A stretch of DNA of 64,000 bases, taken from a virus. Taxonomy: Duplodnaviria > Caudoviricetes. The stretch is from positions 160,001 through 224,000 of IMG/VR virus record IMGVR_UViG_3300014204_013734, one strand, 5' to 3'. Positions 2,833 through 58,600 of this stretch are shown one piece after another; position 1 is the stretch's first letter, and the number at the start of each line of letters is the position of its first letter. The notes under the pieces were generated by a model. That model searched no databases. It was given only the letters and a program-made list of their open reading frames with translations, and was not told the origin of the DNA. The translations under genes and the position numbers were made by a program.

Positions 2833-3717
2833 ATGACACAAACCAATCAAGTTGACAATGCCGTTCGGCAGCGCATCATCGGCGACCTTATCAAGACCCC
2901 TGCGGGTCGTGCAAAGCTTGCCGCTTCCATGACGCAACCTCTCCGTACCCGTCGTGACTATGCCGCGGTCGGTCGTAAGACCTTCCTCGTCGAACAGCTC
3001 CCCGACGGTGCTCTCCCGATCTACGACAAAGACCCGGACATCACGGCTTTTGTCGTGGGTGAAGAAGGTCAGAACATTCTGGCCGTCACGAAACCTCGGC
3101 GCGTGATTTTCCCGTTGTTCGAAATTGCTTCGAACCCGGAAATCCCGCTCACCCAAATCAAGGAACGTCGGTTCGACCTCATCGAACGGTCCCAGAACTT
3201 GGCTCGCGCCCAGATTCAGGCCGCTGAAGATGAGAGGACCTTTGCGGTTCTTGACAGCATCGCAACCTTCGGTTTTGACAGCCTTGCTGGACAGTTGAAC
3301 CCGGACATCCCGGTTGTGGCCCCAATCAGCTCTGCCGTCCTCGCCGACGCATTCAGCTTGGTTGAACGTCAGGACCTCCGTGTTGCTCGCGTTTACATGA
3401 ACGCCCGTGACTACGCTGACCTGCGTAAGTTCGGCCGTGACATCCTGGACATCGAATCCCAGGCGACTTTGCTGAAGACCGGTCTCATGGCGACCCTCTG
3501 GGGTGCCCAGGTCGTGACCAGCCGTCTCGTGCCCGTCGGCACGGTGTACGTTTGTTGCGAGCCGGAACACTTCGGTCGCATTCCAGTCCGTACGGAATTG
3601 ACGGTCCTGTCTGCTGACGACCCGAAAGCCCGTACAATTGGTTTCTCATGCTTCGAGAATTTAGGCATAGGCGCTTTCAACCCGCGTGGTCTGGCCCGTC
3701 TGACCATCACCCGCTAA
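2833..3717 (+). CDS. Major capsid protein (HK97 fold)
   Basis: AAGGAGGGAG RBS. Capsid-like segments GRAKLAASMTQPLRTRRDY, FEIASNPEI, IQAAEDER, VYMNARDYADLRK, LWGAQVVTSRLVPVGTVY. Followed by a strong terminator. Confidence 0.85.
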   Translation: MTQTNQVDNAVRQRIIGDLIKTPAGRAKLAASMTQPLRTRRDYAAVGRKTFLVEQLPDGALPIYDKDPDITAFVVGEEGQNILAVTKPRRVIFPLFEIASNPEIPLTQIKERRFDLIERSQNLARAQIQAAEDERTFAVLDSIATFGFDSLAGQLNPDIPVVAPISSAVLADAFSLVERQDLRVARVYMNARDYADLRKFGRDILDIESQATLLKTGLMATLWGAQVVTSRLVPVGTVYVCCEPEHFGRIPVRTELTVLSADDPKARTIGFSCFENLGIGAFNPRGLARLTITR

Positions 3718-10116: not shown

Positions 10117-10177
10117 GCGTTGGTTTTCCTATTGGAACCCTCCTGTGGGCACAAAATGCTCACAGGAGGTTCCCCCA

Positions 10178-10567
10178 TTGAAACATAACGCCAGCAGTCA
10201 AGCCGCTTGGGCACTCCTTATGGAAGGGGTTACCAAAGCGAGGATTGAAGCTCACCGGATCAGGCACTTGGTTAACCGTGCTACCAGCCTTGTGGGATCC
10301 TCTTCCGAAAAAGAACACCTATACCAAGTAGCAGGCGACATTATCGTCGGGTTGCCTGATCGGTTGGAAAAGTTGGAAGTCACTCTTGACCGAACAGGGT
10401 TGGCCTTGTCGGAAATGGGTCAGGATTTCCTGAAATCGCGTCTCCCCTTTTCGGAAAAGACTTTGGTAGAAGAAGCCGTTGAACCGGCTTTTGGGAAGGG
10501 GCGTCCGATGGAATCCATGTCCGAACGCATAGCGTCGCGGTGGTTGGAGGGGGTTGATGTCGATTAA
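10178..10567 (+). CDS. Hypothetical protein (helical; C-terminal ERIASRW motif)
   Basis: AGGAGG RBS before TTG 10178; overlaps the next gene. Confidence 0.65.
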   Translation: MKHNASSQAAWALLMEGVTKARIEAHRIRHLVNRATSLVGSSSEKEHLYQVAGDIIVGLPDRLEKLEVTLDRTGLALSEMGQDFLKSRLPFSEKTLVEEAVEPAFGKGRPMESMSERIASRWLEGVDVD

Positions 10568-32617: not shown

Positions 32618-33197
32618 AGCCCGTATCATATGTTTGGTGCCGTCCATCCGTATTCCGGATCTTGATTTGACTTTGGCTAAGGACCAGGAAGCTTACGTGG
32701 ACGAAAAGGCTGCCAAAGGTTCCCTTGATTTGGATGTAGCCCGCCGGGCCGGCGGAGTCCAATTGCATTGGGTAGAACGTAGCCGAATCGTTAAGTCCCC
32801 CGACCCTCCGGTGCCGCCTGTACGTGTGGATCCGCCAAAACGAGGATTCCAGTCGTTTCCAGCAGAACGGTTGGAATTGGATTTGGATGACTTGGCCAGT
32901 CGTGTTGCTGAACGGATGGTTTCCAAGACTAGGGATTCAGAAACGAACAGCAAGATAGACGCCCTCCTTGAACTGGTTGGAAATCTTCGTCAAGAAATTG
33001 CAGGGGCTTCTGTTGCATCGGGTCAGTCCCGTGGTAGGGTAACAGTTGAGGATGACACCCCTGTGTTCATCCCTGGCAAGTTGGTGAACGAAGATTTGGG
33101 GACCGTGGAAGTGAAGACAGACGATTCAGATTCCGGTGATGGTTTGGATAAGGCGGCGGAAGTCTTGAAAGCATTACGGAAACGCAAGAAGAAATGA
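32610..33197 (+). CDS. Hypothetical protein
   Basis: GAGGAGG RBS before GTG 32610; basic C-terminus; coupled to the actin-like gene. Confidence 0.65.
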   Translation: MVEARIICLVPSIRIPDLDLTLAKDQEAYVDEKAAKGSLDLDVARRAGGVQLHWVERSRIVKSPDPPVPPVRVDPPKRGFQSFPAERLELDLDDLASRVAERMVSKTRDSETNSKIDALLELVGNLRQEIAGASVASGQSRGRVTVEDDTPVFIPGKLVNEDLGTVEVKTDDSDSGDGLDKAAEVLKALRKRKKK

Positions 33198-33208
33198 GGA
33201 GAACCGCC

Positions 33209-34237
33209 ATGGCGGACAAGACAGAAAAATCAAATAATTCCAATAGGTTGCCGGGCAGTGGTTTAGATTGTGGCACTATGAATATTGTTTCAGCCAGACG
33301 AGGCCCTTCTGGTATCATTACGAAACGGATGCGGGACGTGTTCCTAGATCTTCCCTTAAGTGCGAAGAAGATGTTGAAGTTATCCAACGCCAGTTTCGTG
33401 GAACGGCCAGACGACGTCCTCATCCTGGGCGATGCGGCCCTGGAAATGGCCAACGTGTTTGGGAAGGATCCTCGCCGTCCATTGGCCCAGGGTATTATTT
33501 CTCCCAGTGAATCGGAAAGTTTGGAAGTTTTGGGGTTGCTCGTCAAGAGTGTTCTTGGTGACCCTATTGTTCCGGGGGAACATTGTTACTTTTCTGTTCC
33601 TGCTATGCCGGTTGACAGGACAGATAAGGATGTCATTTACCATCGTGGGGTGTTTGAACGCATTGTCAAGGAATGTGGGTTCACGCCACATTCCGGCAAC
33701 GAGGCGATGGCCATCATCTATTCGCAGACGGCGGAAGAAGGCTTTTCCGGGATTGCCCTTTCCTTCGGAAGCGGTATGACAAATGTCGCACTTTCGATAA
33801 ATACCGTAGAAGGGTTGACTTTTTCGGTCGCCCGGGGCGGGGATTGGATTGATGCCGGCGCGGCGCATGCCATTGGGCAGACGCCTGCCCGCATCTGTGC
33901 CCTGAAGGAACGCGGGTTTGACCTCATAAGCCCTGTCGGCAGGGAACAGGAAGCCTTGGCTTTCTATTACAAGGAAGCCATCAACTATGCTTTTGACCAG
34001 ATCGAAGCCCAGTTCAAGGCGGTCAAGGACAAGTTCTCCCTTGCGAAGCCTATCCCGATGATCGTGTCGGGCGGGACTTCCCTTGCCGGTGGCTTCATGG
34101 ATTTCTTCACGGGAGTTTTTGAAGCCCGTCGGAAGAAGTTCCCCATTTCCATTTCGGTCATCCGTCAGGCATCTGACCCCTTGAATGCCGTGGCTCATGG
34201 TTTGCTGGTGCAGGCGATGCAAGAGCACGAACAATAG
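33209..34237 (+). CDS. Actin-fold ATPase (MreB/ParM/FtsA-like)
   Basis: GLDCGTMNIV (phosphate 1), NEAMAII, LSFGSGMTNV (phosphate 2), GGDWID, IVSGGTSL (adenosine), DPLNAVAHG. Confidence 0.85.
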   Translation: MADKTEKSNNSNRLPGSGLDCGTMNIVSARRGPSGIITKRMRDVFLDLPLSAKKMLKLSNASFVERPDDVLILGDAALEMANVFGKDPRRPLAQGIISPSESESLEVLGLLVKSVLGDPIVPGEHCYFSVPAMPVDRTDKDVIYHRGVFERIVKECGFTPHSGNEAMAIIYSQTAEEGFSGIALSFGSGMTNVALSINTVEGLTFSVARGGDWIDAGAAHAIGQTPARICALKERGFDLISPVGREQEALAFYYKEAINYAFDQIEAQFKAVKDKFSLAKPIPMIVSGGTSLAGGFMDFFTGVFEARRKKFPISISVIRQASDPLNAVAHGLLVQAMQEHEQ

Positions 34238-35674: not shown

Positions 35675-37009
35675 ATGCTTCATCAATGGGCTGGATGGGA
35701 AGTAGATCTACTGTCGGCGACACGCCCTTGGCTTCCTGCATCCGATCTTATTAGTTTGTTCAAGGCGTGCGGATCCGTCAGATCCAAAGATTCTTTGAAC
35801 AACAAGGCAACTGCTCTTGGTATTGACATACGGGGGCACAATGCCGAAAAGGCACTGTCAGCGGTCATCAAGTCAAAAATCCCACAAAACCTGAAACAAT
35901 TGGCGGTTACGTTCCTTGGAGGGGTTCCTATCGATACGTCGGAAATCGGGGATCCTTCAAAGGTAGCTGACCGAGTGGAAATTGACAAACTTCGGGGTAG
36001 GGTCCGGTCCCTTGAAAAGGACTTGGAAGAAGGCACCTATTTCGGCAAAATCGTGAAGGATCTGTTTTCCAAACCGGTTTCGGTTCCGGATTGGGTTCTG
36101 GCAGCCCCCAAGAAGAAATCAGGGAAGGTAGCGACCCCCCAACTGCTCATCAGTGATTGGCATTATGGGGAAGTCGTGGACCCGAATGCCATTTGGGGAG
36201 TCAACGAATACAACCCAGAAATAGCTGTCCGGCGCCTGCACCGTGTAGCACAAGCTGCTACCTCCATGTTCAAGGAATACTTGTCGGGATGGCGGTATGA
36301 CGGCATCATAGTCCCCTTGGCAGGGGACATGATTTCCGGCAAGATTCATGCAGAGTTGGAACGTACAAACGCCGAACAGTTGACTGATTCCGTTTTGTCC
36401 TGGTCAGCCGAATTGGCGCGTATGCTTACTGTCCTGGCGGATGCCTTCGGCAAAGTTTACGTTCCAGCGGTAGTTGGAAATCATGGCAGGGAAGATCTTA
36501 AACCTTCCATGAAGCAGGCCGTGGCCCGGAACTACGATTATCTGTTGTACCGACTTGTGAAACGGGAAGTGCATAATGATCCCCGTATTACGGTGGATGT
36601 GTCCCTTTCTACTTCACGTAGGTACACGGTTTACGGGCAGGGATACCACTTGATGCACGGTGACGATTTCAAGGGTGGTAGCGGTATTGCCGGTTCCTGG
36701 TCCCCTTTGAAACTCGGAGAACACCGGACGACGCAACAGTTCATGGATTTGGGACATGATTTTGAGTCTGGGTGTTTGGTTCTTGGGCACTTCCATCGTC
36801 GGATGACCGATATTGGTCTGATTGTCAACGGGTCAGGGATCGGTTACAATGAATTTGCATTCCGGAAACATTACAAATTCGAAAGACCCCAGCAGGCGGC
36901 GTGGATCACAACCCCGGAAAATGGCCAGACTTTGGAATTCCCTGTATTCTGTGATTCCCACGAGGAATACGAAGCCCAGATAGTTGCCGCCAGACTCTTG
37001 AACAAGTGA
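35675..37009 (+). CDS. Calcineurin-like metallophosphoesterase with N-terminal HTH/coiled region
   Basis: SDWHYG, AGDMISG, VGNHG, MHGD, LGHFH. Confidence 0.88.
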   Translation: MLHQWAGWEVDLLSATRPWLPASDLISLFKACGSVRSKDSLNNKATALGIDIRGHNAEKALSAVIKSKIPQNLKQLAVTFLGGVPIDTSEIGDPSKVADRVEIDKLRGRVRSLEKDLEEGTYFGKIVKDLFSKPVSVPDWVLAAPKKKSGKVATPQLLISDWHYGEVVDPNAIWGVNEYNPEIAVRRLHRVAQAATSMFKEYLSGWRYDGIIVPLAGDMISGKIHAELERTNAEQLTDSVLSWSAELARMLTVLADAFGKVYVPAVVGNHGREDLKPSMKQAVARNYDYLLYRLVKREVHNDPRITVDVSLSTSRRYTVYGQGYHLMHGDDFKGGSGIAGSWSPLKLGEHRTTQQFMDLGHDFESGCLVLGHFHRRMTDIGLIVNGSGIGYNEFAFRKHYKFERPQQAAWITTPENGQTLEFPVFCDSHEEYEAQIVAARLLNK

Positions 37010-37038
37010 AGGAGGTAGATTACAAATAATTTCCTTAT

Positions 37039-37255
37039 CGTTCCCCCACTTATGTGGGGTGATCTTGGAACCCCTTTGGTGAGTATTCCCCACATCAGTG
37101 GGGATGAACCGCGGCGTGGATTACGTTCCCTACACACGTGGGGATGGCCCGTGCTCGGCGTTTGTTCGTTCCTAATTCCCCACGTTAGTGGGGGTGACCC
37201 GTGGGACATCACCTTAGATTTTGATGTTGTTCCCCACATTAGTGGGCGTTGACTG
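37039..37255 (+). CRISPR. Degenerate type I-E-like CRISPR mini-array: 5 repeats, 4 short spacers (about 15, 11, 21, 25 nt), no cas genes in window
   Basis: Repeats at about 37039-37067, 37083-37111 (GTATTCCCCACATCAGTGGGGATGAACCG), 37123-37151, 37173-37201, 37227-37255. All keep a TCCC(C/T)AC-N4-GTGGG(G) hairpin; 8-nt 3' handles ATGAACCG, ATGGCCCG, GTGACCCG. Confidence 0.8.
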
Positions 37256-37271
37256 ACCAGAGGGGTTCCAA

Positions 37272-38471
37272 TTGTACTTTCAGTTAACCGAACAATTGAA
37301 ACGACGGTTCATTTTAGAACTCCGTCGTTTCTGGTCTACACATCCCCACTACTCCGACATTGTTGACAAAATTCAAGGGAAGTTTTCCTTCAAGGAACGT
37401 CCTTCCTACGGCATTATTGTCAAGACTTCCGGAGGTAACCGGGTTGACCTTTCCGCCGACAACTATATGGCTATGACGATCAGTTACGTCCACTTGGCGC
37501 GTGCAAGAAACAATCCTGGGGTTGCCATAGAATGGGTTCGTGAAGATTCTGTTGCCATTCAAAATAATGGAGGTATTTTTCCGTCTCTGCCTGGTGTTTA
37601 CTGGATTGAATTGACGGAGGATACTGAATTTTACGTTGACCCTCTCCTGAACATTGTCGGGGAAATCCCAACCCCTATTGACCTTACGACGTTTCAGTTG
37701 CAGCACGCCCCTGTTGCTGGGACTGTCCGTTTGTATGAGATGCCTGCCCGTTATATGTTGGTAGAGGGACAGAACTACACACTTTCCCTTGGACCTGATG
37801 GGAAACCGAATGGTGAAATCATTCTGACGACTCCGTTGACCAGAGACCGCTTTCTGGTAGCGGATTATCGTTTTCCAGCCCCCTCCCGTGGACCTTTCGT
37901 TTTGAACCCCGGTTATGCTGATAACAAAGCAATCCCGGGTGTGATTTTGGCATTTGGTAGGAGGAATCAGAAGGGTGATAAACTTGTTGTCATCGTTGAC
38001 GAAATTCGTCGTCCAGTTGCGTTGGAGTATGGTGGAAAATGGGACGTCACCTTAGATTTTGATGTCATTGCCAGAGATGTTCATGCACAGCAGGAAATTG
38101 CAGATGCAACCGTCGTCTGGATTTGGGCTGTCCTTCGGTCTTGGATGTCCCAGGAAGGTTTGGAAATTACCGACCTGTCCATGGGGGGTGAATCGGAGGA
38201 AACCTACGATGAAGCTGGTGACGACTATTTCTACAACTCTTCGTTTTCCTTGACCGTTCAGACTGATTGGCGCCTCCAGGTTCCTTTGAGTGCCTTTATC
38301 CGGCAAGTTACTCCTGAAACCAGCATTTATGCCCGGGGATTGGCTTCTATCCCGGATGCCCAGTTGGCTTTAACCCAACAGGGGATTAGGGCGGCTACCG
38401 ACTTGGGTTTGGAACTGGTTTCCGACCCCTTCTTTTCCGGGCGTATTGCCACATACGAACAAGTCCGGTGA
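37272..38471 (+). CDS. Putative tail terminator/neck structural protein
   Basis: TTG start after GAGGGG. C-terminal LDFDVIARD..QQEIAD..SFSLTVQTDW fits a tail-terminator fold; lies upstream of the sheath. Confidence 0.5.
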   Translation: MYFQLTEQLKRRFILELRRFWSTHPHYSDIVDKIQGKFSFKERPSYGIIVKTSGGNRVDLSADNYMAMTISYVHLARARNNPGVAIEWVREDSVAIQNNGGIFPSLPGVYWIELTEDTEFYVDPLLNIVGEIPTPIDLTTFQLQHAPVAGTVRLYEMPARYMLVEGQNYTLSLGPDGKPNGEIILTTPLTRDRFLVADYRFPAPSRGPFVLNPGYADNKAIPGVILAFGRRNQKGDKLVVIVDEIRRPVALEYGGKWDVTLDFDVIARDVHAQQEIADATVVWIWAVLRSWMSQEGLEITDLSMGGESEETYDEAGDDYFYNSSFSLTVQTDWRLQVPLSAFIRQVTPETSIYARGLASIPDAQLALTQQGIRAATDLGLELVSDPFFSGRIATYEQVR

Positions 38472-38993: not shown

Positions 38994-39809
38994 GTGCGGA
39001 CCTATTTGATTTACAAGGCAACTTCTCCTTCCGGGAAGATTTACGTAGGGCTTACCAGCCAAAAAATGAAGGTGAGAAAACACCAACATTATTCGTCAGC
39101 TAAGCGGTTTCAAAGTTCTGGGGCTTTCCAGAAGGCCCTTCTCAAGTACAGGACTGCTATGACGTGGGACATCTTGGAATCTGGACTTCCTGACTTTGAA
39201 GCTGCCGCTGCCAGGGAACGGTATTACATAGCCTTGTTTGGAGCAAATATCTCAGGTAAAGGCTACAACCACACGGAAGGAGGGGGTCAAGGAAGACCCT
39301 TGAATTCCAAGAATTCCAAATCTAATATTGATCCGGTCTTGCGTTCTGATGGGATTGTTTTTCCTTCTGCACGGGCTGCTGCTTTGGCTATGGGAGCAAA
39401 GTGTGATTGGGCTGTTGGAAAGGCCATCAAGAATAAAGGCACCTGTGGTGGATTTTCTTTTCGGCGGATATCCGTTGAAGAATATGAATCTTTGAAAGAA
39501 ACATGTACCCCTAAGAACGTTCCCATTGTTCATTGGACTTATGCTAGGACTTTTTCTGATGCCGTCAGACGGAAGATATCGGAAACAAAAAAAGGGAAAC
39601 CTTTAAAGCACACCAGCAAACCTGTTAGGCGTTCGGATGGGGTTTTGTTTCCGTCCATAAAAGAAGCAGCGATTTCGGTTGGTACGACATCAGACGCTTT
39701 ACGCTATGCTGCACAAAGAAACCAACTTTGTCATGGGTTTTTATTTGAGATTTTTCCGAAAGGAATTTCGGTGGTCGCCCTATTGAAACCCCTTGGTGGA
39801 CAGGATTGA
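38994..39809 (+). CDS. GIY-YIG homing endonuclease with NUMOD-type DNA-binding repeats
   Basis: LIYKATSPSGKIYVGLT, ERYYIALF, GYNHTEGG; two RSDG..FPS..AA repeats; RRKISETKKG. Confidence 0.88.
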   Translation: MRTYLIYKATSPSGKIYVGLTSQKMKVRKHQHYSSAKRFQSSGAFQKALLKYRTAMTWDILESGLPDFEAAAARERYYIALFGANISGKGYNHTEGGGQGRPLNSKNSKSNIDPVLRSDGIVFPSARAAALAMGAKCDWAVGKAIKNKGTCGGFSFRRISVEEYESLKETCTPKNVPIVHWTYARTFSDAVRRKISETKKGKPLKHTSKPVRRSDGVLFPSIKEAAISVGTTSDALRYAAQRNQLCHGFLFEIFPKGISVVALLKPLGGQD

Positions 39810-45159: not shown

Positions 45160-45188
45160 TTGACAACCTCCTTGGGCCATGGTAATGT
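45160..45188 (+). promoter_or_regulatory. Sigma70-like promoter
   Basis: TTGACA-17 nt-TAATGT with TG extension; AAGGAGG RBS follows. Confidence 0.6.
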
Positions 45189-45209
45189 GACCCAAGGAGG
45201 TTGTTTTTT

Positions 45210-48945: not shown

Positions 48946-49103
48946 TTGCTTCCTCCAAAATCTAACACCTAGTCTTTTCTACCCGAAAAAGCGTAAAAGT
49001 TTCCTTTCTAAAACTATTTTCTTTTTGTTGACAGTTTTCTTGGCAGTTCTTGACAGAACGGGGTATTATGGAAGGGTGTTTGTTGGAATGGAGGTTTTCT
49101 AAC

Positions 49104-53202: not shown

Positions 53203-54429
53203 ATGTCAAACATTTCCTTTACTGTCCTGGAAAAGGTTTTTGCTCCCATTGAAGCCATTGGCCACGATGAATTGGTGGTTGATGCGGGGGGGACTTCGGT
53301 CACGCTTCGGGTGCTTCTCCCGGAAGAAGAAAACAACGTCCAGCGGTGGGCGTCGGAAGTCATGCCGGAAGAAAACCGGAAGACGACTGTAGACGCCATG
53401 GACTACCTGGAACGGTTCAAGGTCGGCATTTTGTCCTATGCCATTATTGGCGTTAGCGGGCAGGATTTGCATGACGTTGATTTCGTGGAAACCGGAGAAA
53501 CCCTCCCTAACGGGGCCAAAGTCAAGGTGTCTCGTAACGTAGCGTTGCGGGGGGTTCTTTTCAAATGGTCCGGCGCCCTGAGGACTCGGTTGTTCAACAA
53601 GTATGCAGAACTTCTGAAGCACATGGAAACACGGGCTGAAGAAGCCATCGTTTACGAACCTTCTGATTTGGATACCGAGATTGAACGTCTTGAAATTCGT
53701 CTAAAAGACCTGAAGAATGAAAGGGATCGGCAAAAGGCCGGAACCTATTCGGGATTGTCCGAACAGATTCGTGCCGTAGCAGCACTGGATTCTGACCGTC
53801 GTCAGGACAATTTGGATGCCATGGCCAAACTTTCGGCTGTACGGGCGGATGCGTCCCAGCAAACCTTAGCTGAAGCAGCCGGAATTGATCCAAATCAAAT
53901 CGACCCAACCCAGGTCAAGGTAAGAACCCCCGGATGGGAAAAAACCCCTTCCGTCCCCCCGCCTGAAAGAATTGAAACAGCTCCCGCCCAGCAGCCCCCT
54001 GTTTCTTCCCCTGTTGGAGGGGATTCATTTGTGAATGCTTCTGATCCTGATGCTTTGGCAGCGGAAGCTATTGCGGAAACCAACAGGTTGGTTGCAATGC
54101 GGAGAAGAGTAGCTAAAGAAGAAGCGGAAAAGGCATCTGTTGAAACTCCGCAAGCATTTGCTGCCGGGCACCGTCCCCCGCACCTGGATGCGGCCGAAAC
54201 GGTTGTGGAAACGAATTTGGATTCTGAAGAACTGCGTTTGTTGCGGAAGGCTCGGGAAGATCGGGAGACACCTGTTGGGACTCTGGAAGGGGCTCCGGTG
54301 TACAAGATGCCTTCGGAACCACTGGAACGAAAAATGCCGGCTTTTGACGGTAAGCGGCTACCCTTGAACAGTCCTGTTCCGAATCAAGGACGGAACCCAA
54401 GATTTCAACCACCAAGAAACAAGATTTGA
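53203..54429 (+). CDS. Putative tail assembly chaperone
   Basis: VTLRVLLPEEE..ILSYAIIGVSG..RLFNKYAEL; lies between tube and tape measure. Confidence 0.55.
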   Translation: MSNISFTVLEKVFAPIEAIGHDELVVDAGGTSVTLRVLLPEEENNVQRWASEVMPEENRKTTVDAMDYLERFKVGILSYAIIGVSGQDLHDVDFVETGETLPNGAKVKVSRNVALRGVLFKWSGALRTRLFNKYAELLKHMETRAEEAIVYEPSDLDTEIERLEIRLKDLKNERDRQKAGTYSGLSEQIRAVAALDSDRRQDNLDAMAKLSAVRADASQQTLAEAAGIDPNQIDPTQVKVRTPGWEKTPSVPPPERIETAPAQQPPVSSPVGGDSFVNASDPDALAAEAIAETNRLVAMRRRVAKEEAEKASVETPQAFAAGHRPPHLDAAETVVETNLDSEELRLLRKAREDRETPVGTLEGAPVYKMPSEPLERKMPAFDGKRLPLNSPVPNQGRNPRFQPPRNKI

Positions 54430-55644: not shown

Positions 55645-58600
55645 TGGGTATGGCTGGCGCTCATGATACAGTAATGCAACTGGCGATCAATCCCCGGCTT
55701 ATGGGGCGAAATCTCACCAGGGATATGCAGAAGATGCAAGCGACTCTGGGACGTAACCTCGGTCAGGTTATGTCTGAAGCGGCGGGCGGTCGCTTTACGG
55801 ACAAGATGGCAGCCGAAGTCCGGAAAAAATTTGAATCGCTGCAAAGTGATCTGAAGGATTCCAGGGAAAAAGCGGAAAGGGCTGCGGAAAAATTGCGGGA
55901 TACTGCAATTTCCGTACAAGAACGTTTGCAGCAACGGGCTATTTTGGATTCTGCCAAACTGGAATACGATGCCTTACTTAAGCGATACAAGGCAGAAGAA
56001 GACAACGTTAAAGCAGTCGCTTCGCGTCGTGTCAAATCTTACGATAAGGAACTGGAAACCGTTGGTATGAAGATGGGCCAGAACGCCGAAAGCTTCGGCG
56101 AATCTTTGCATGACATTTTTTCCGACCTGACGTCCAAGGACCTTGGGTCCATGCTTCAAATTATTTCGAAAATGGGTCAAAAAGCCAAGTCTGCTGGGGA
56201 CATGGCTCGTGCGGGTCAGGGTGTAGGGACTACGGGTAAAGTTTTGGATAAAGTAGGCGGGGTGTTAGGGAAAATCGGGCCTGCTTTGATGGCCATTGGT
56301 GCTGTTGTCGCTGGTTTTGCCGCCGTGATAAAACTGATCATTGATGCAGACGCACAGGCTAAGGAACTGCACCGTACCTTGATGGAAAGCGGTACTTCTC
56401 TTGGGGATATGGTAGGGGGGGCACAAAATGTTAAGAAAGCATTTGATGAGGTCAGGGACGCCGCCGTTGACCTTCGGAACAACTACAAGTGGGGAACGCT
56501 GGCAGCGGACCAGTTAAAAATCCTTGGGGCGTTCAACAACACGGTCTACACCCTGAAAAAAATGGGAGATGGGTTGGGAAATGCCGAAGATAGGATGAAG
56601 GCATACCAGCAAGCTACATCGGCCGCCTTAATTTATTCAAAGCTGTTGGGGGAATCTGCTGAAACCGTTACACAGCAGATGGGCGACATGATGGAAGAAC
56701 TTGGGTTGTCCTTGACGGGAGTTAAGGAAAAGTTTGCCGCCATTTACGATGCGGCCCAATCCAGCGGATACGGGACAAAACGATTTTTCGGAATGGTCCT
56801 TCAGGCGACAACCGGCATGTCTATGTACAATGTCAGGCTGGAACAGACTTCCGCCATGCTCCTGAGTTTGAATAAAATACTCGGGTCCAAGTTCGGGCAA
56901 GAGTTTTTCAGTAAGCTGACCCAGGGGTTTTCTAAGCAAAGTGCGCAAGAAGGCATGAAGACTATCATGATGGCAGGAGCGGACACTGTAGGGAAAGCTT
57001 TGTCCGGTACGGCAAAATATGCTGCTGACGGTTTCGTCGACATTTTTGAAAAATCCATAAAACCAGGGGGTGATTTTGGGGATGCGTTGTCCAAAGCCTT
57101 CAATATTGACGGTAAGAAATTGGCGGCGGATCTTAAGGATCGGGACAAACGGGAAACCGCTTTGGATGCGTTGGTCGGTAAGTTGAAACAGATGGATCCG
57201 AAAGCTTTTGCATCGGCTGTGGCGACTGTGACCAAGGATTCAAACAGTAATGTTGCCAGGGGATTGCAACAACTCAGGACGCAGGCCAAAGGCATCGGAG
57301 GGGATCTTGGGGATCAAATGCAGGCCTTGCGGGCGTTGGATCCTGGGGCCGCTTTGGTCATGCACTTCAAAGTCTTGGAAAAGTGGACAAAGAAAACCCC
57401 AGAAGAACTTCAGGATTTAGGGGCCATCAACCAGATGTTTGCAGAAAATTCTTTGGGGATGGACACAGAGATGCAGGATCAATTGAAGAACATCGGAATT
57501 AGTTCGGTAGGCGCCTGGAAGGAAATGTCTACTTTGAAGGATAAACAGTTGTCTCCTGCGGATTTGGAAAAGGAACAAGCTAAACAGGTAGCGGCATGGG
57601 GGGCTTTTTCCGACAAGAGTGGCAAGATATGGGCCGGTAAGTTGGATGAGAATGGGAAAGCTGTTGCTACCAGTATGGGTCCTTTGAAGGATGTCTACGA
57701 CCTTATGTCTGGGCGTGTATCCGCAGATCAGAAAGTCAACGAAGTCATGAGCAAGCAGGAAGCTTTGGCTCAGCAAGTGGCTTCAAACACAACTGAAATG
57801 ACTAAAATTCTTGAACAAGGTGTTCAGGCTGTCTTGAACAAAATATACACCGCTGTCCAAGGTATTTGGGGGAAAATGGGAGGTTTGTCTGAAGGTGAAC
57901 AAAAGGCACAAAGGAAGGCACTTGAAGCACAGGATGCAATCATCAAGTCGCTCCAAGAAAGACAACGCGAATTAGCTATGAAAGCATCAACTGCCGAATT
58001 GGGTGTGAAAACGGCGACGACACCGGAAGAAAAATTAGCGAAACAGAAAGAATTGGACACCCTCAATTCGGAAATGGATCGAAACCGTCAGCGTATTGCT
58101 GATGAAACGGAACTTTCAAAAGCGATCCAAAACCAGACCTCAAGTAATTGGACCTTTGATAAAAAGGCATCGGAATTTCTGTCGGAAGCCCAAAAAATGC
58201 GGGAAGATCAAAAAAAGGCTCCTGCTGCCGGCACTGTGGTTACAGGCGAACAGGTAGCCGGAGGGGTTTCCGGGCAATTTATGAAGGACATATCGGGGAT
58301 AGCTAAGTGGGTGTCAGGCGTGTTCACCGACGGGATGGAAGGAGTGGAAAAGACCGACGTCAACCTTTCCAAAAAGGAAGAAATACAGAATAAGTACGAA
58401 GACAAGAAAATGGAGGACAAACGGATTGCTACTGCCAAGAACAAGTTGAATCCTGACTTGGCCAAGAAGATTGCGGAAGAAAACCAGAAGGGATCACTCA
58501 AGTCGGCCCTGGCGGCCGGAGGGGTTCCGACCAACATGATTGATGAAGTCGCCGAAGCCATTATGGGCGGGCGTCCTGCTGGAATCAACATCGCTCCTGA

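Follow-up and report, generated by a model that had tools for sequence, protein, structure and literature searches.

Hairpins that sequester the ribosome site within the leader are described for the T4 genes e, soc, 49 and I-TevI, as well as for mobE of phage Aeh1; long read-through transcripts of these genes are silent, and transcripts without the 5′ strand are translated (PMC3014915). CRISPR-type repeats are known from phages in other settings. The RNA anti-CRISPRs (Racr) are solitary repeat units, with RacrIE1 and RacrIE2 as type I-E examples (Camara-Wilpert et al. 2023, PMC10651486). The viral Cracr arrays are phage-borne and of type I-E, possessing degenerate repeats and pseudo-spacers of 21-24 nt; an example from Salmonella has been shown to mature in a Cas-dependent manner (bioRxiv 10.1101/2024.10.29.618823). 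An engineered translational activator responding to Csy4 (Cas6f) combines a cis-repressive element with a Cas6 hairpin ahead of the RBS (PMC8621321).

The locus presented here is the leader of a structural gene in an uncultured huge phage (Duplodnaviria; Caudoviricetes), and lies in a window of 64,000 nucleotides (positions 160,001 to 224,000 of IMG/VR record IMGVR_UViG_3300014204_013734). It resembles the T4 leaders in that the Shine-Dalgarno (SD) sequence of the gene beginning at 37272 is inside a helix, the 5′ strand of which is upstream, that the gene is a structural one, and that the design is found at several genes. It differs in having a loop of 167 nt with four CRISPR-repeat look-alikes, a longer stem (16-20 bp), and no promoter between the arms of the helix in a search of 37085-37250 confined to the sigma-70 type; no RNA run was found to contain the stretch. 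Like Racr, the repeats at 37039-37255 are phage-encoded, Cas-less mimics of host repeats with a conserved hairpin; unlike the solitary Racr units, five of them are clustered in a structural-gene 5′ leader with a ribosome-site helix around them, and their anti-CRISPR role is putative. Degenerate repeats and short pseudo-spacers (12-26 nt) are shared with the Cracr arrays, whose pseudo-spacers match host cas or toxin promoters, whereas those of the present array match genes flanking it in the phage itself, one of them also pairing intramolecularly with the ribosome site. The order of an anti-RBS arm, Cas6-type hairpin(s) and RBS is that of the Csy4 device, but the latter is synthetic and its short repressor drops off after cleavage, whereas the duplex here would persist (−25.8 kcal/mol). 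To our knowledge there is no natural example of such an activator. On balance, the 37065 helix probably belongs to a class of ribosome-site-sequestering leaders present at several genes of this phage, with the CRISPR-like repeats as passengers.

The leader helix and the gene behind it

The features of the locus are as follows.

37026-37039, plus strand: leader motif TAATTTCCTTATCG, common to other leaders of the phage
37039-37067, plus strand: repeat 1, a degenerate type I-E-like hairpin (CCCCAC/GTGGGG) outside the helix and 5′ of it, between the leader motif and the 5′ arm
37065-37084, plus strand: extended 5′ arm, comprising pseudo-spacer 1 flanked by 3 nt from repeat 1 and 2 nt from repeat 2; putative anti-ribosome-site sequence
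37083-37111, plus strand: repeat 2, GTATTCCCCACATCAGTGGGGATGAACCG, identical to genuine I-E repeats but for 1-3 bases of the 4-nt loop
37112-37123, plus strand: pseudo-spacer 2, 12 nt, with an 11/12 match to 36897-36908 (plus strand) in the upstream exonuclease gene
37124-37151, plus strand: repeat 3, stem kept via a G-U pair
37152-37173, plus strand: pseudo-spacer 3, 22 nt, with a 19/22 match to the minus strand of 36357-36378
37174-37201, plus strand: repeat 4
37202-37227, plus strand: pseudo-spacer 4, 26 nt, with a 25/26 match to 38040-38065 (plus strand) inside the downstream gene
37228-37255, plus strand: repeat 5, with a 5-bp stem and a degenerate 3′ part, the last 4 nt being in the extended helix
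37252-37271, plus strand: extended 3′ arm, containing the SD GAGGGG (37260-37265) and ending at −1 of the start codon
37265-37302, plus strand: competing local hairpin, GTTCCAATTGT / ACAATTGAAAC, whose GTTCCAA is also part of the 3′ arm and in which the start codon would be paired
37272-38471, plus strand: gene for a tail-terminator/neck "gateway"-fold protein with inserted domains (399 aa, TTG start), conserved in a clade of huge phages

The 16-bp inverted repeat of the original prediction consists of TTGGAACCCCTTTGGT (37065-37080) and ACCAGAGGGGTTCCAA (37256-37271), which form 15 Watson-Crick pairs and one G-U pair. As had been claimed, its 3′ arm reaches the last base before the TTG at 37272 with the GAGGGG inside, and repeats 2-5 are all situated between the arms. 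Past one G.G mismatch the helix gains another 3 bp, to 37084/37252 (20 nt, 90%). Its stacking energy is −28.2 kcal/mol, and when the intergenic region was dinucleotide-shuffled 1000 times, one shuffle contained an equally stable helix; by length only, G-U allowed, 16 bp were reached in 4 of 300 shuffles. Folding of 37030-37300, a check that had been proposed, places the 37065-37080/37256-37271 pairing as the closing helix of both the minimum-free-energy and the centroid structure, and across six contexts of 235 to 1400 nt its pairs have a mean probability of 0.95-0.98. Compared with shuffled versions, the region as a whole is far more stably folded (z = −6.2). The helix is a real and dominant RNA structure in any transcript running from upstream of 37065 into the tail-terminator-like gene. 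A search of the whole window against Rfam gave no family at gathering score, and within 36950-37350 only chance-level matches (E > 1) were obtained, including a weak CRISPR-DR6-like hairpin at 37265-37302.

The earlier label "tail gene" was roughly right: the AlphaFold model of the product (pLDDT 80) matches tail-terminator/neck gateway proteins with Z 12-14.5. A true start codon elsewhere had been named among the results that would count against the prediction, and the TTG at 37272 held up. It is well supported by an in-frame stop at 37254-37256, which bounds the frame upstream, and by a conserved MYFxLTE N-terminus that begins at residue 1 in ~90 homologs, which often have a weak start codon (TTG, GTG, ATT, ATC) at this residue. 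A 66-codon frame at 37052-37252 and a minus-strand frame at 36871-37239 lack an SD and were not taken as genes.

Since G-rich SDs pair in shuffled sequences too, SD pairing probability is a weak statistic, and it was replaced with the energy needed to open the ribosome site (−16 to +3). With the 5′ arm present this amounts to 22.5 kcal/mol versus 8.9 ± 2.6 kcal/mol in shuffles, none of 100 reaching the observed value; without the arm it falls to 5.0 kcal/mol, less than in any of the 100 shuffles, and for the mRNA cut after repeat 5 and taken alone the calculated value is 4.2 kcal/mol. These switch-like energetics rank the leader in the top ~1% among 358 approximate gene starts of the genome. 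Two properties of a T4-type leader are found at 37272, namely an SD or start codon inside a stable intramolecular helix and, by calculation only, an accessible site once the 5′ strand is removed. We surmise that the tail/neck gene would stay untranslated as long as the 5′ arm is attached, and that a transcript begun, or cut and stripped, downstream of 37084 would offer an unusually open ribosome site. The five Cas-less I-E look-alikes would be passengers, presumably inserted into an older hairpin, the stem of which would still close around repeats 2-5 in its loop, with repeat 1 having been placed between the leader motif and the 5′ arm.

Leader hairpins of the same design

Within the 381-kb phage, ribosome-site-occluding leader hairpins also occur at 10125-10180, at 45167-45200 and in front of a metacaspase gene.

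10125-10180, plus strand: paralogous leader, TTTCCTAT + TGGAACCCTCCTGTGGGCA / TGCTCACAGGAGGTTCC, then TTG at 10178; opening energy 24.4 kcal/mol
45167-45203, plus strand: another helix built in this way, CCTCCTTGGG / CCCAAGGAGG, whose last base is −1 relative to TTG 45201 of a ROS/MucR-domain gene

Opening the ribosome site costs 29.1 kcal/mol at 45167-45200 and 25.7 kcal/mol in the metacaspase leader (GGAAACCCCTTTAC / GTAAAAGGAGGTTTCC, directly followed by ATG); for none of the three leaders did any of 100 shuffles reach the observed value. All three are devoid of CRISPR-like repeats, and the 37065 helix therefore has a CRISPR-independent explanation. The leader at 10125-10180 has the same TTGGAACCC arm and likewise a TTTCCT(T)AT motif in front of it. 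Because the TTGGAACCC sequence of the 5′ arm and the motif TTTCCTTATCG upstream of it are elements that leaders of the phage have in common, recurring in this ordinary hairpin, what had been described as "spacer 1" is probably no acquired spacer and more likely an old anti-ribosome-site arm. The TAATTTCCTTATCG motif is related to another, TTCnCCTAT(C), that precedes the homologous gene in relatives; an anti-SD remnant and a late promoter or processing signal are candidate roles for it. An abundant motif, GGCTTGGAA-N13-14-CGGTAGT, was also considered and is absent from the 37272 leader, where the likeness in the 5′ arm (CTTGGAA) is without the second box.

A subset of the homologs possess SD-burying hairpins of different sequence (L013, 21.2; L050, 19.2; L071, 19.1; L051, 16.4 kcal/mol). 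Leader occlusion is significant at p ≤ 0.05 in 11 of 63 loci (Wilcoxon p = 0.017) and is a feature of this subset only. The closest relatives, L091 and L092 (78% protein identity), have a terminator and neither the array nor an occluding helix, and repeats at the homologous gene are found in none of ~90 related loci. Covariation, which the original prediction had proposed looking for, is lacking for the 37065 helix, since the phage, which occurs at landfill or groundwater sites, recurs in three other metagenome runs without a difference in the parts covered. RNAalifold gave no consensus on a MAFFT alignment of the homolog leaders because their hairpins are not alignable by sequence, and GenBank phages yielded no useful match.

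Repeats, pseudo-spacers and competing explanations

The repeats have the sequence and hairpin of a genuine type I-E repeat; the hairpin core for putative Cas6e recognition is GTATTCCCCAC-N4-GTGGGGATGAACCG, and the five hairpins are candidate Cas6e cut sites. Their stems are conserved and their loops variable. The I-E pattern TATTCCCCAC-N4-GTGGGGATG-NN-CCG was found in >120 genomic stretches, the majority being arrays of 61-nt period, and genuine arrays, with near-identical repeats and 32-35-nt spacers, are present in the same metagenomes as the phage. A canonical array is characterized by near-identical repeats, 32-33-nt spacers and the 61-nt I-E period, whereas here the repeat starts are spaced 40, 50 and 54 nt apart, the pseudo-spacers measure 12-26 nt and the repeats are 67-83% alike. 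Neither cas6e, cas7e nor cas1 was found in the 381-kb record (estimated 72% complete), and there was no match to PF08798, PF09344 or PF01867. Solitary units of the same repeat sit in a tRNA cluster, and a second Cas-less array, at G000 350634-351223, is without an enclosing helix. A search for the host via 1478 spacers from arrays with this repeat returned only chance matches to the phage.

All four pseudo-spacers, the 5′ arm included, are near-copied within 850 bp on either strand, pseudo-spacer 1 having a 14/16 match at 37253 (minus strand). For pseudo-spacers 3 and 4 the local matches are the only ones in 381 kb at ≤3 mismatches; pseudo-spacer 2 has one other 11/12 match elsewhere. Since all four match nearby phage DNA, the complementarity could have an origin unrelated to RNA folding: pseudo-spacer 1 would then copy the minus strand at the ribosome site, the RNA helix being incidental, and the pseudo-spacers could be guides against sibling phages, the relic of a host array once captured, or filler DNA copied from a template. 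RNA pairing cannot explain pseudo-spacers 2 and 4, because both are same-sense copies, and the site matching pseudo-spacer 4 has AAA in the phage in place of the AAG of several relatives, together with a mismatch at spacer position 7, differences which look like protection from self-targeting. An incidental helix is a rival reading, though a less likely one. The TTGGAACCC arm and the motif before it recur at 10125-10180, the pairing overruns the spacer by 3 nt into repeat 1 and by 1-2 nt into repeat 2, apart from the helix the ribosome site is unusually accessible, and a helix that ends exactly at −1 and covers the SD would be a coincidence of ~5% (an estimate, for four sites over ~1.7 kb).

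The original prediction envisaged a riboregulator by which the phage would sense the CRISPR machinery of its host. In this reading host Cas6e would cut the loop repeats and Cascade would load the 5′ piece, removing the anti-ribosome-site arm and switching on, or in another way changing, translation of the tail gene. Four hairpins in the loop that match genuine I-E repeats, the arrays with near-identical repeats in the same metagenomes, the fall in opening energy from 22.5 to 5.0 kcal/mol without the 5′ arm (4.2 in the processed mRNA) and the performance of the Csy4 device of the same layout (PMC8621321) are consistent with it. After Cas6e-type cuts, however, the 5′ piece and the mRNA would by calculation still pair in trans (ddG −25.8 kcal/mol), so cleavage alone would not free the ribosome site and active displacement would be needed. 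The phage's equivalent helices without repeats indicate that no connection with CRISPR is required for the helix, two of the repeats (1 and 5) are degenerate, and a structural gene dependent on host Cas would be a liability in Cas-free hosts. A switch responsive to Cas6e or Cascade is thus possible but unsupported, and we rate it as distinctly improbable; the same low standing applies to the variants in which the 5′ arm doubles as part of a crRNA-like guide, with Cas6e and Cascade stripping the arm, or Cascade assembling on the handle-bearing 5′ end of the mRNA, so that the synthesis of virion protein would follow the I-E machinery of the host. It is very unlikely that the helix instead holds the repeats together as a compact decoy RNA, resistant to nucleases and similar to Racr, with the ribosome-site overlap secondary. 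Such a non-coding RNA would suit the folding z-score, the conserved stems with varying loops and the solitary units in the tRNA cluster, yet the helix fits poorly as its closing stem because repeat 1 is outside, no terminator was found after the helix, the 3′ arm serves as ribosome site for a conserved gene that follows without a gap, and the same helix design exists without repeats. Arms of 16-20 nt flanking a non-coding unit of ~207 bp might also suggest the terminal inverted repeats of a small, MITE-like mobile element. The original prediction had already judged this less likely, and we rejected it as scarcely credible: the ends show no target-site duplication, at ≤2 mismatches the 16-mer matches only its partner arm in the 381-kb record, isolated TTGGAACCC 9-mers elsewhere are without a matching partner, and the element is absent from all related loci.

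Significance

Leader hairpins that hide the ribosome site are a classic timing device of T4. That an uncultured huge phage repeats the arrangement at several of its genes suggests a tool of general use in the control of late genes. What is new is that one such leader contains clustered mimics of host-type CRISPR repeats. Their location couples the making of a probable anti-CRISPR or guide RNA to transcription of a structural gene, in a layout that is that of an engineered Cas6-activated switch. Were the link to Cas true, it would provide the first example from nature of a phage that reads host CRISPR proteins via translation; if the link is not real, the locus still shows that the loops of phage leader hairpins can tolerate large non-coding insertions.

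The helix and the gene behind it

The leader of the 399-aa tail-terminator/neck-like gene contains two distant complementary arms, and the elements concerned are as follows.

37065-37080: 5′ arm, TTGGAACCCCTTTGGT, mostly pseudo-spacer 1 (S1)
37256-37271: 3′ arm, ACCAGAGGGGTTCCAA
37260-37265: GAGGGG Shine-Dalgarno sequence, inside the helix
37272-38471, plus strand: 399-aa gene, TTG start

The arms are joined by 15 Watson-Crick pairs and one G-U, which bears out the 16-bp complementarity of the original prediction; beyond one G.G mismatch, three further pairs extend the helix to 37084/37252. Also as predicted, its last base directly precedes the TTG, GAGGGG is covered, and repeats 2–5 are enclosed by the arms, repeat 1 lying 5′ of the helix. 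Folding of 37030-37300 agrees, both the minimum-free-energy and the centroid structures being closed by this helix. It is not extreme by length (16 bp, with G-U allowed, was attained in 4 of 300 shuffles); its stacking energy is −28.2 kcal/mol, equaled in only 1 of 1000 dinucleotide shuffles. The mean probability of the 16 pairs is 0.95–0.98 in all contexts (235–1400 nt). We regard the helix as real and a chance origin as very unlikely.

It occludes the ribosome site of the gene. The opening energy, defined as the cost of forcing positions −16 to +3 unpaired, is 22.5 kcal/mol for a 250 nt leader versus 8.9 ± 2.6 in shuffled leaders, none of 100 shuffles attaining this value. When the leader is cut to 190 nt, removing the 5′ arm, the cost is 5.0 kcal/mol, which is below all 100 shuffles; the site is therefore built open and is shut by a single arm. 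The 358 approximate gene starts in the genome average 7.7 kcal/mol, with a 99th percentile of 21.0.

The possibility that translation begins elsewhere is countered by an in-frame stop at 37254-37256, which bounds the frame upstream, and by the N-terminus MYFxLTE, found at the equivalent residue in approximately 90 homologous loci. Start codons among these are ATG, GTG, TTG, ATT, or ATC. In many homologs an apparent ATT or ATC start follows a good Shine-Dalgarno sequence, with the conserved N-terminus commencing at that codon (loci L016-L020, L023, L025, L026, L032, L043, L054, and L061-L063). The 399-aa protein has no Pfam or PHROGs match. Its AlphaFold model (37 homologs, pLDDT 80) resembles tail-terminator and neck “gateway” proteins (Z 12–14.5), including lambda gpU and the necks of phages 812, E217, and Sf14, relative to which it possesses extra inserted domains.

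IMG/VR classes the 381-kb record as a provirus; it is an estimated 72% complete and carries 35 tRNA genes, and the same sequence is present in the metagenomes of three studies, from landfill and groundwater. Nearly all genes around the helix are on the plus strand, in a conserved block ordered 472 aa, 202, 205, 347-aa Volactin, variable insert, 399-aa gene, 150-aa zinc-ribbon, and 1765 aa. In this phage the insert comprises a capsid-like fragment, a terminase-like ATPase, an exonuclease (phrog_284), and the repeat cluster. The protein just upstream of it (33194-34237) matches Pfam Volactin, an actin-like family (E = 4.5e-70), and is 60–75% identical across the phage clade. A GIY-YIG homing-endonuclease gene (38994-39809) between the zinc-ribbon and 1765-aa genes looks like a recent insertion, since a relative lies nearby in only one of approximately 90 related loci (L053). 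Elsewhere, GGCTTGGAA-N13-14-CGGTAGT, a candidate early/middle promoter, occurs in some 30 copies in the whole record (e.g., at 3185, 13517, 34032, 74159, 291400, and 343685), nearly all of them between genes and frequently as divergent pairs; these cluster in 1-90 kb and 287-381 kb, with none in the structural region.

Leader hairpins in this phage and its relatives

Similar helices precede other genes of this phage.

Leaders, with opening energies (kcal/mol) and those of their shuffles
10125-10180, plus: TTTCCTAT, then TGGAACCCTCCTGTGGGCA, 5-nt loop, TGCTCACAGGAGGTTCC, TTG at 10178; 24.4 vs 6.0 ± 2.3
45167-45200, plus: CCTCCTTGGG / CCCAAGGAGG, ending at −1 of TTG 45201; 29.1 vs 9.1 ± 2.3
About 82 kb of the record, minus: metacaspase leader, GGAAACCCCTTTAC / GTAAAAGGAGGTTTCC immediately before ATG; 25.7 vs 8.3 ± 2.3

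The 53203 leader likewise has a very stable helix which buries the Shine-Dalgarno sequence and ends at or near the start codon; energies in this group span 24–29 kcal/mol, versus 6–9 for shuffles.

In the helix under study the order is TTTCCTTATCG at 37029-37039, repeat 1, and TTGGAACCCCTTTGGT, the 3′ arm being CAGAGGGGTTCCAA before the TTG. The 10125 leader shares this motif, TTGGAACCC arm, GGTTCC spacer, and TTG start; between the two leaders the inner pairs diverge in both arms (TCCTGTG/CACAGGA vs CCTTTGG/CCAGAGG). From these common elements, the 5′ arm is probably an anti-ribosome-site arm of the ordinary kind in this phage's leaders rather than an acquired spacer. Comparison of the two paralogous leaders suggests that the repeats would have been inserted into a hairpin loop, repeat 1 being placed between motif and arm.

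At a subset of homologous leaders, hairpins of quite different sequence also bury the Shine-Dalgarno sequence.

Hairpins in homologous leaders of related phages
L013: TGTACCTCCCT / AGGGAGGTACA
L051: CTCCTATT...AATAGGAG
L057: TCTCCTATC / GATAGGAGA
L071: ATCGAGTTATCCC / GGGATAACTCGAT, ending at −1 of TTG

Of 63 unique leaders, eleven lie above their own shuffles at p ≤ 0.05, and a paired test that takes in every leader gives p = 0.017. Among 64 leaders of this gene, 11 contain the motif T[TC]nCCT(A/T)AT, versus a background of 1.6% per 80 nt. Occlusion is recurrent across homologs, not universal. The leader of the nearest relatives (78% identical at the protein level) is unstructured and has an intrinsic terminator; a GTG start and ATAGGCCCCTT...AAGGGGCCTAT with a downstream T run (L091 820-905; L092 470-556) take the place of the repeat cluster and helix.

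The repeat cluster and alternative explanations

The five repeats have the consensus TTCCCCAC-N4-GTGGGG-nTG-nnCCG, with stems retained and loops and 3′ parts variable. A period of 61 nt is typical of type I-E arrays, and the pattern matches >120 genomic stretches across many phyla, mostly arrays of this period; repeat 2 differs from genuine I-E repeats only in loop bases. Metagenomes with the phage also contain high-depth repeat k-mers and contigs with 32–35-nt spacers between near-identical repeats. For 37081-37156 in four runs (X1-X4), the repeats of these genuine arrays, which probably belong to the host or a neighbor, are about 3 letters from repeat 2. A canonical CRISPR array was ruled out by the 40–54 nt spacing and 12–26 nt pseudo-spacers; no cas6e, cas7e, or cas1 was found in the phage record. 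Among published elements, the nearest counterparts are Racr solitary repeat units (PMC10651486) and viral Cracr arrays, whose pseudo-spacers are 21–24 nt (bioRxiv 10.1101/2024.10.29.618823). The I-E-like repeat of this cluster also occurs as three single copies among the clustered tRNA genes, on the tRNA strand, e.g., between tRNA-Arg and tRNA-Gly (record positions 48962-48987, 53400-53425, and 56253-56273, about 104–111 kb before the window). A second Cas-less unit of another type (CTTTACACGTTGAAAG motifs; 350634-351223 of the record) has a terminator at its end and no enclosing helix.

Each of the four pseudo-spacers has a near-copy no more than 850 bp away.

Near-copies of the pseudo-spacers
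S1: 37253-37268, minus, 14/16; the match is the helix itself
S2: 36897-36908, plus, 11/12
S3: 36357-36378, minus, 19/22
S4: 38040-38065, plus, 25/26

Those of S2, S3, and S4 (which lie in 37112-37227) fall in the two flanking genes; the S3 and S4 matches are unique in the record at the mismatch limits searched, and S2 has one additional 11/12 match. Whatever process produced these copies could also have produced S1, leaving the helix incidental, and RNA pairing is excluded as a common cause because the S2 and S4 copies are same-sense. We nevertheless regard such an origin as unlikely: the 5′ arm is shared with the 10125 leader, parts of repeats 1 and 2 outside the “spacer” are also paired, position −1 is exactly where the helix stops, and the ribosome site is unusually open without the arm. 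The S4 site reads AAA here and AAG in several relatives (a synonymous Lys codon), and there is in addition a mismatch at spacer position 7; such differences look like protection from self-targeting.

That repeats and helix would form a switch responsive to host Cas proteins appears improbable, although the layout equals that of an engineered Csy4 activator, whose Cas6 hairpin lies between cis-repressor and RBS (PMC8621321). Were Cas6e-type cuts to fall behind the stems of repeats 1, 2, and 5, the 5′ piece (44 nt) is predicted to stay paired with the mRNA (ddG −25.8 kcal/mol), so that its release would depend on a helicase or on Cascade loading while transcription proceeds; furthermore, helices of the same kind occur without repeats. 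Speculatively, an mRNA cut after repeat 5 would start with the handle-like GUUGACUG immediately followed by the ribosome site, and Cascade could in principle sit on this mRNA.

The interpretation we favor is that the helix belongs to a class of T4-like leader hairpins found across this phage, its own loop accommodating a cluster of Cas-less I-E repeats.
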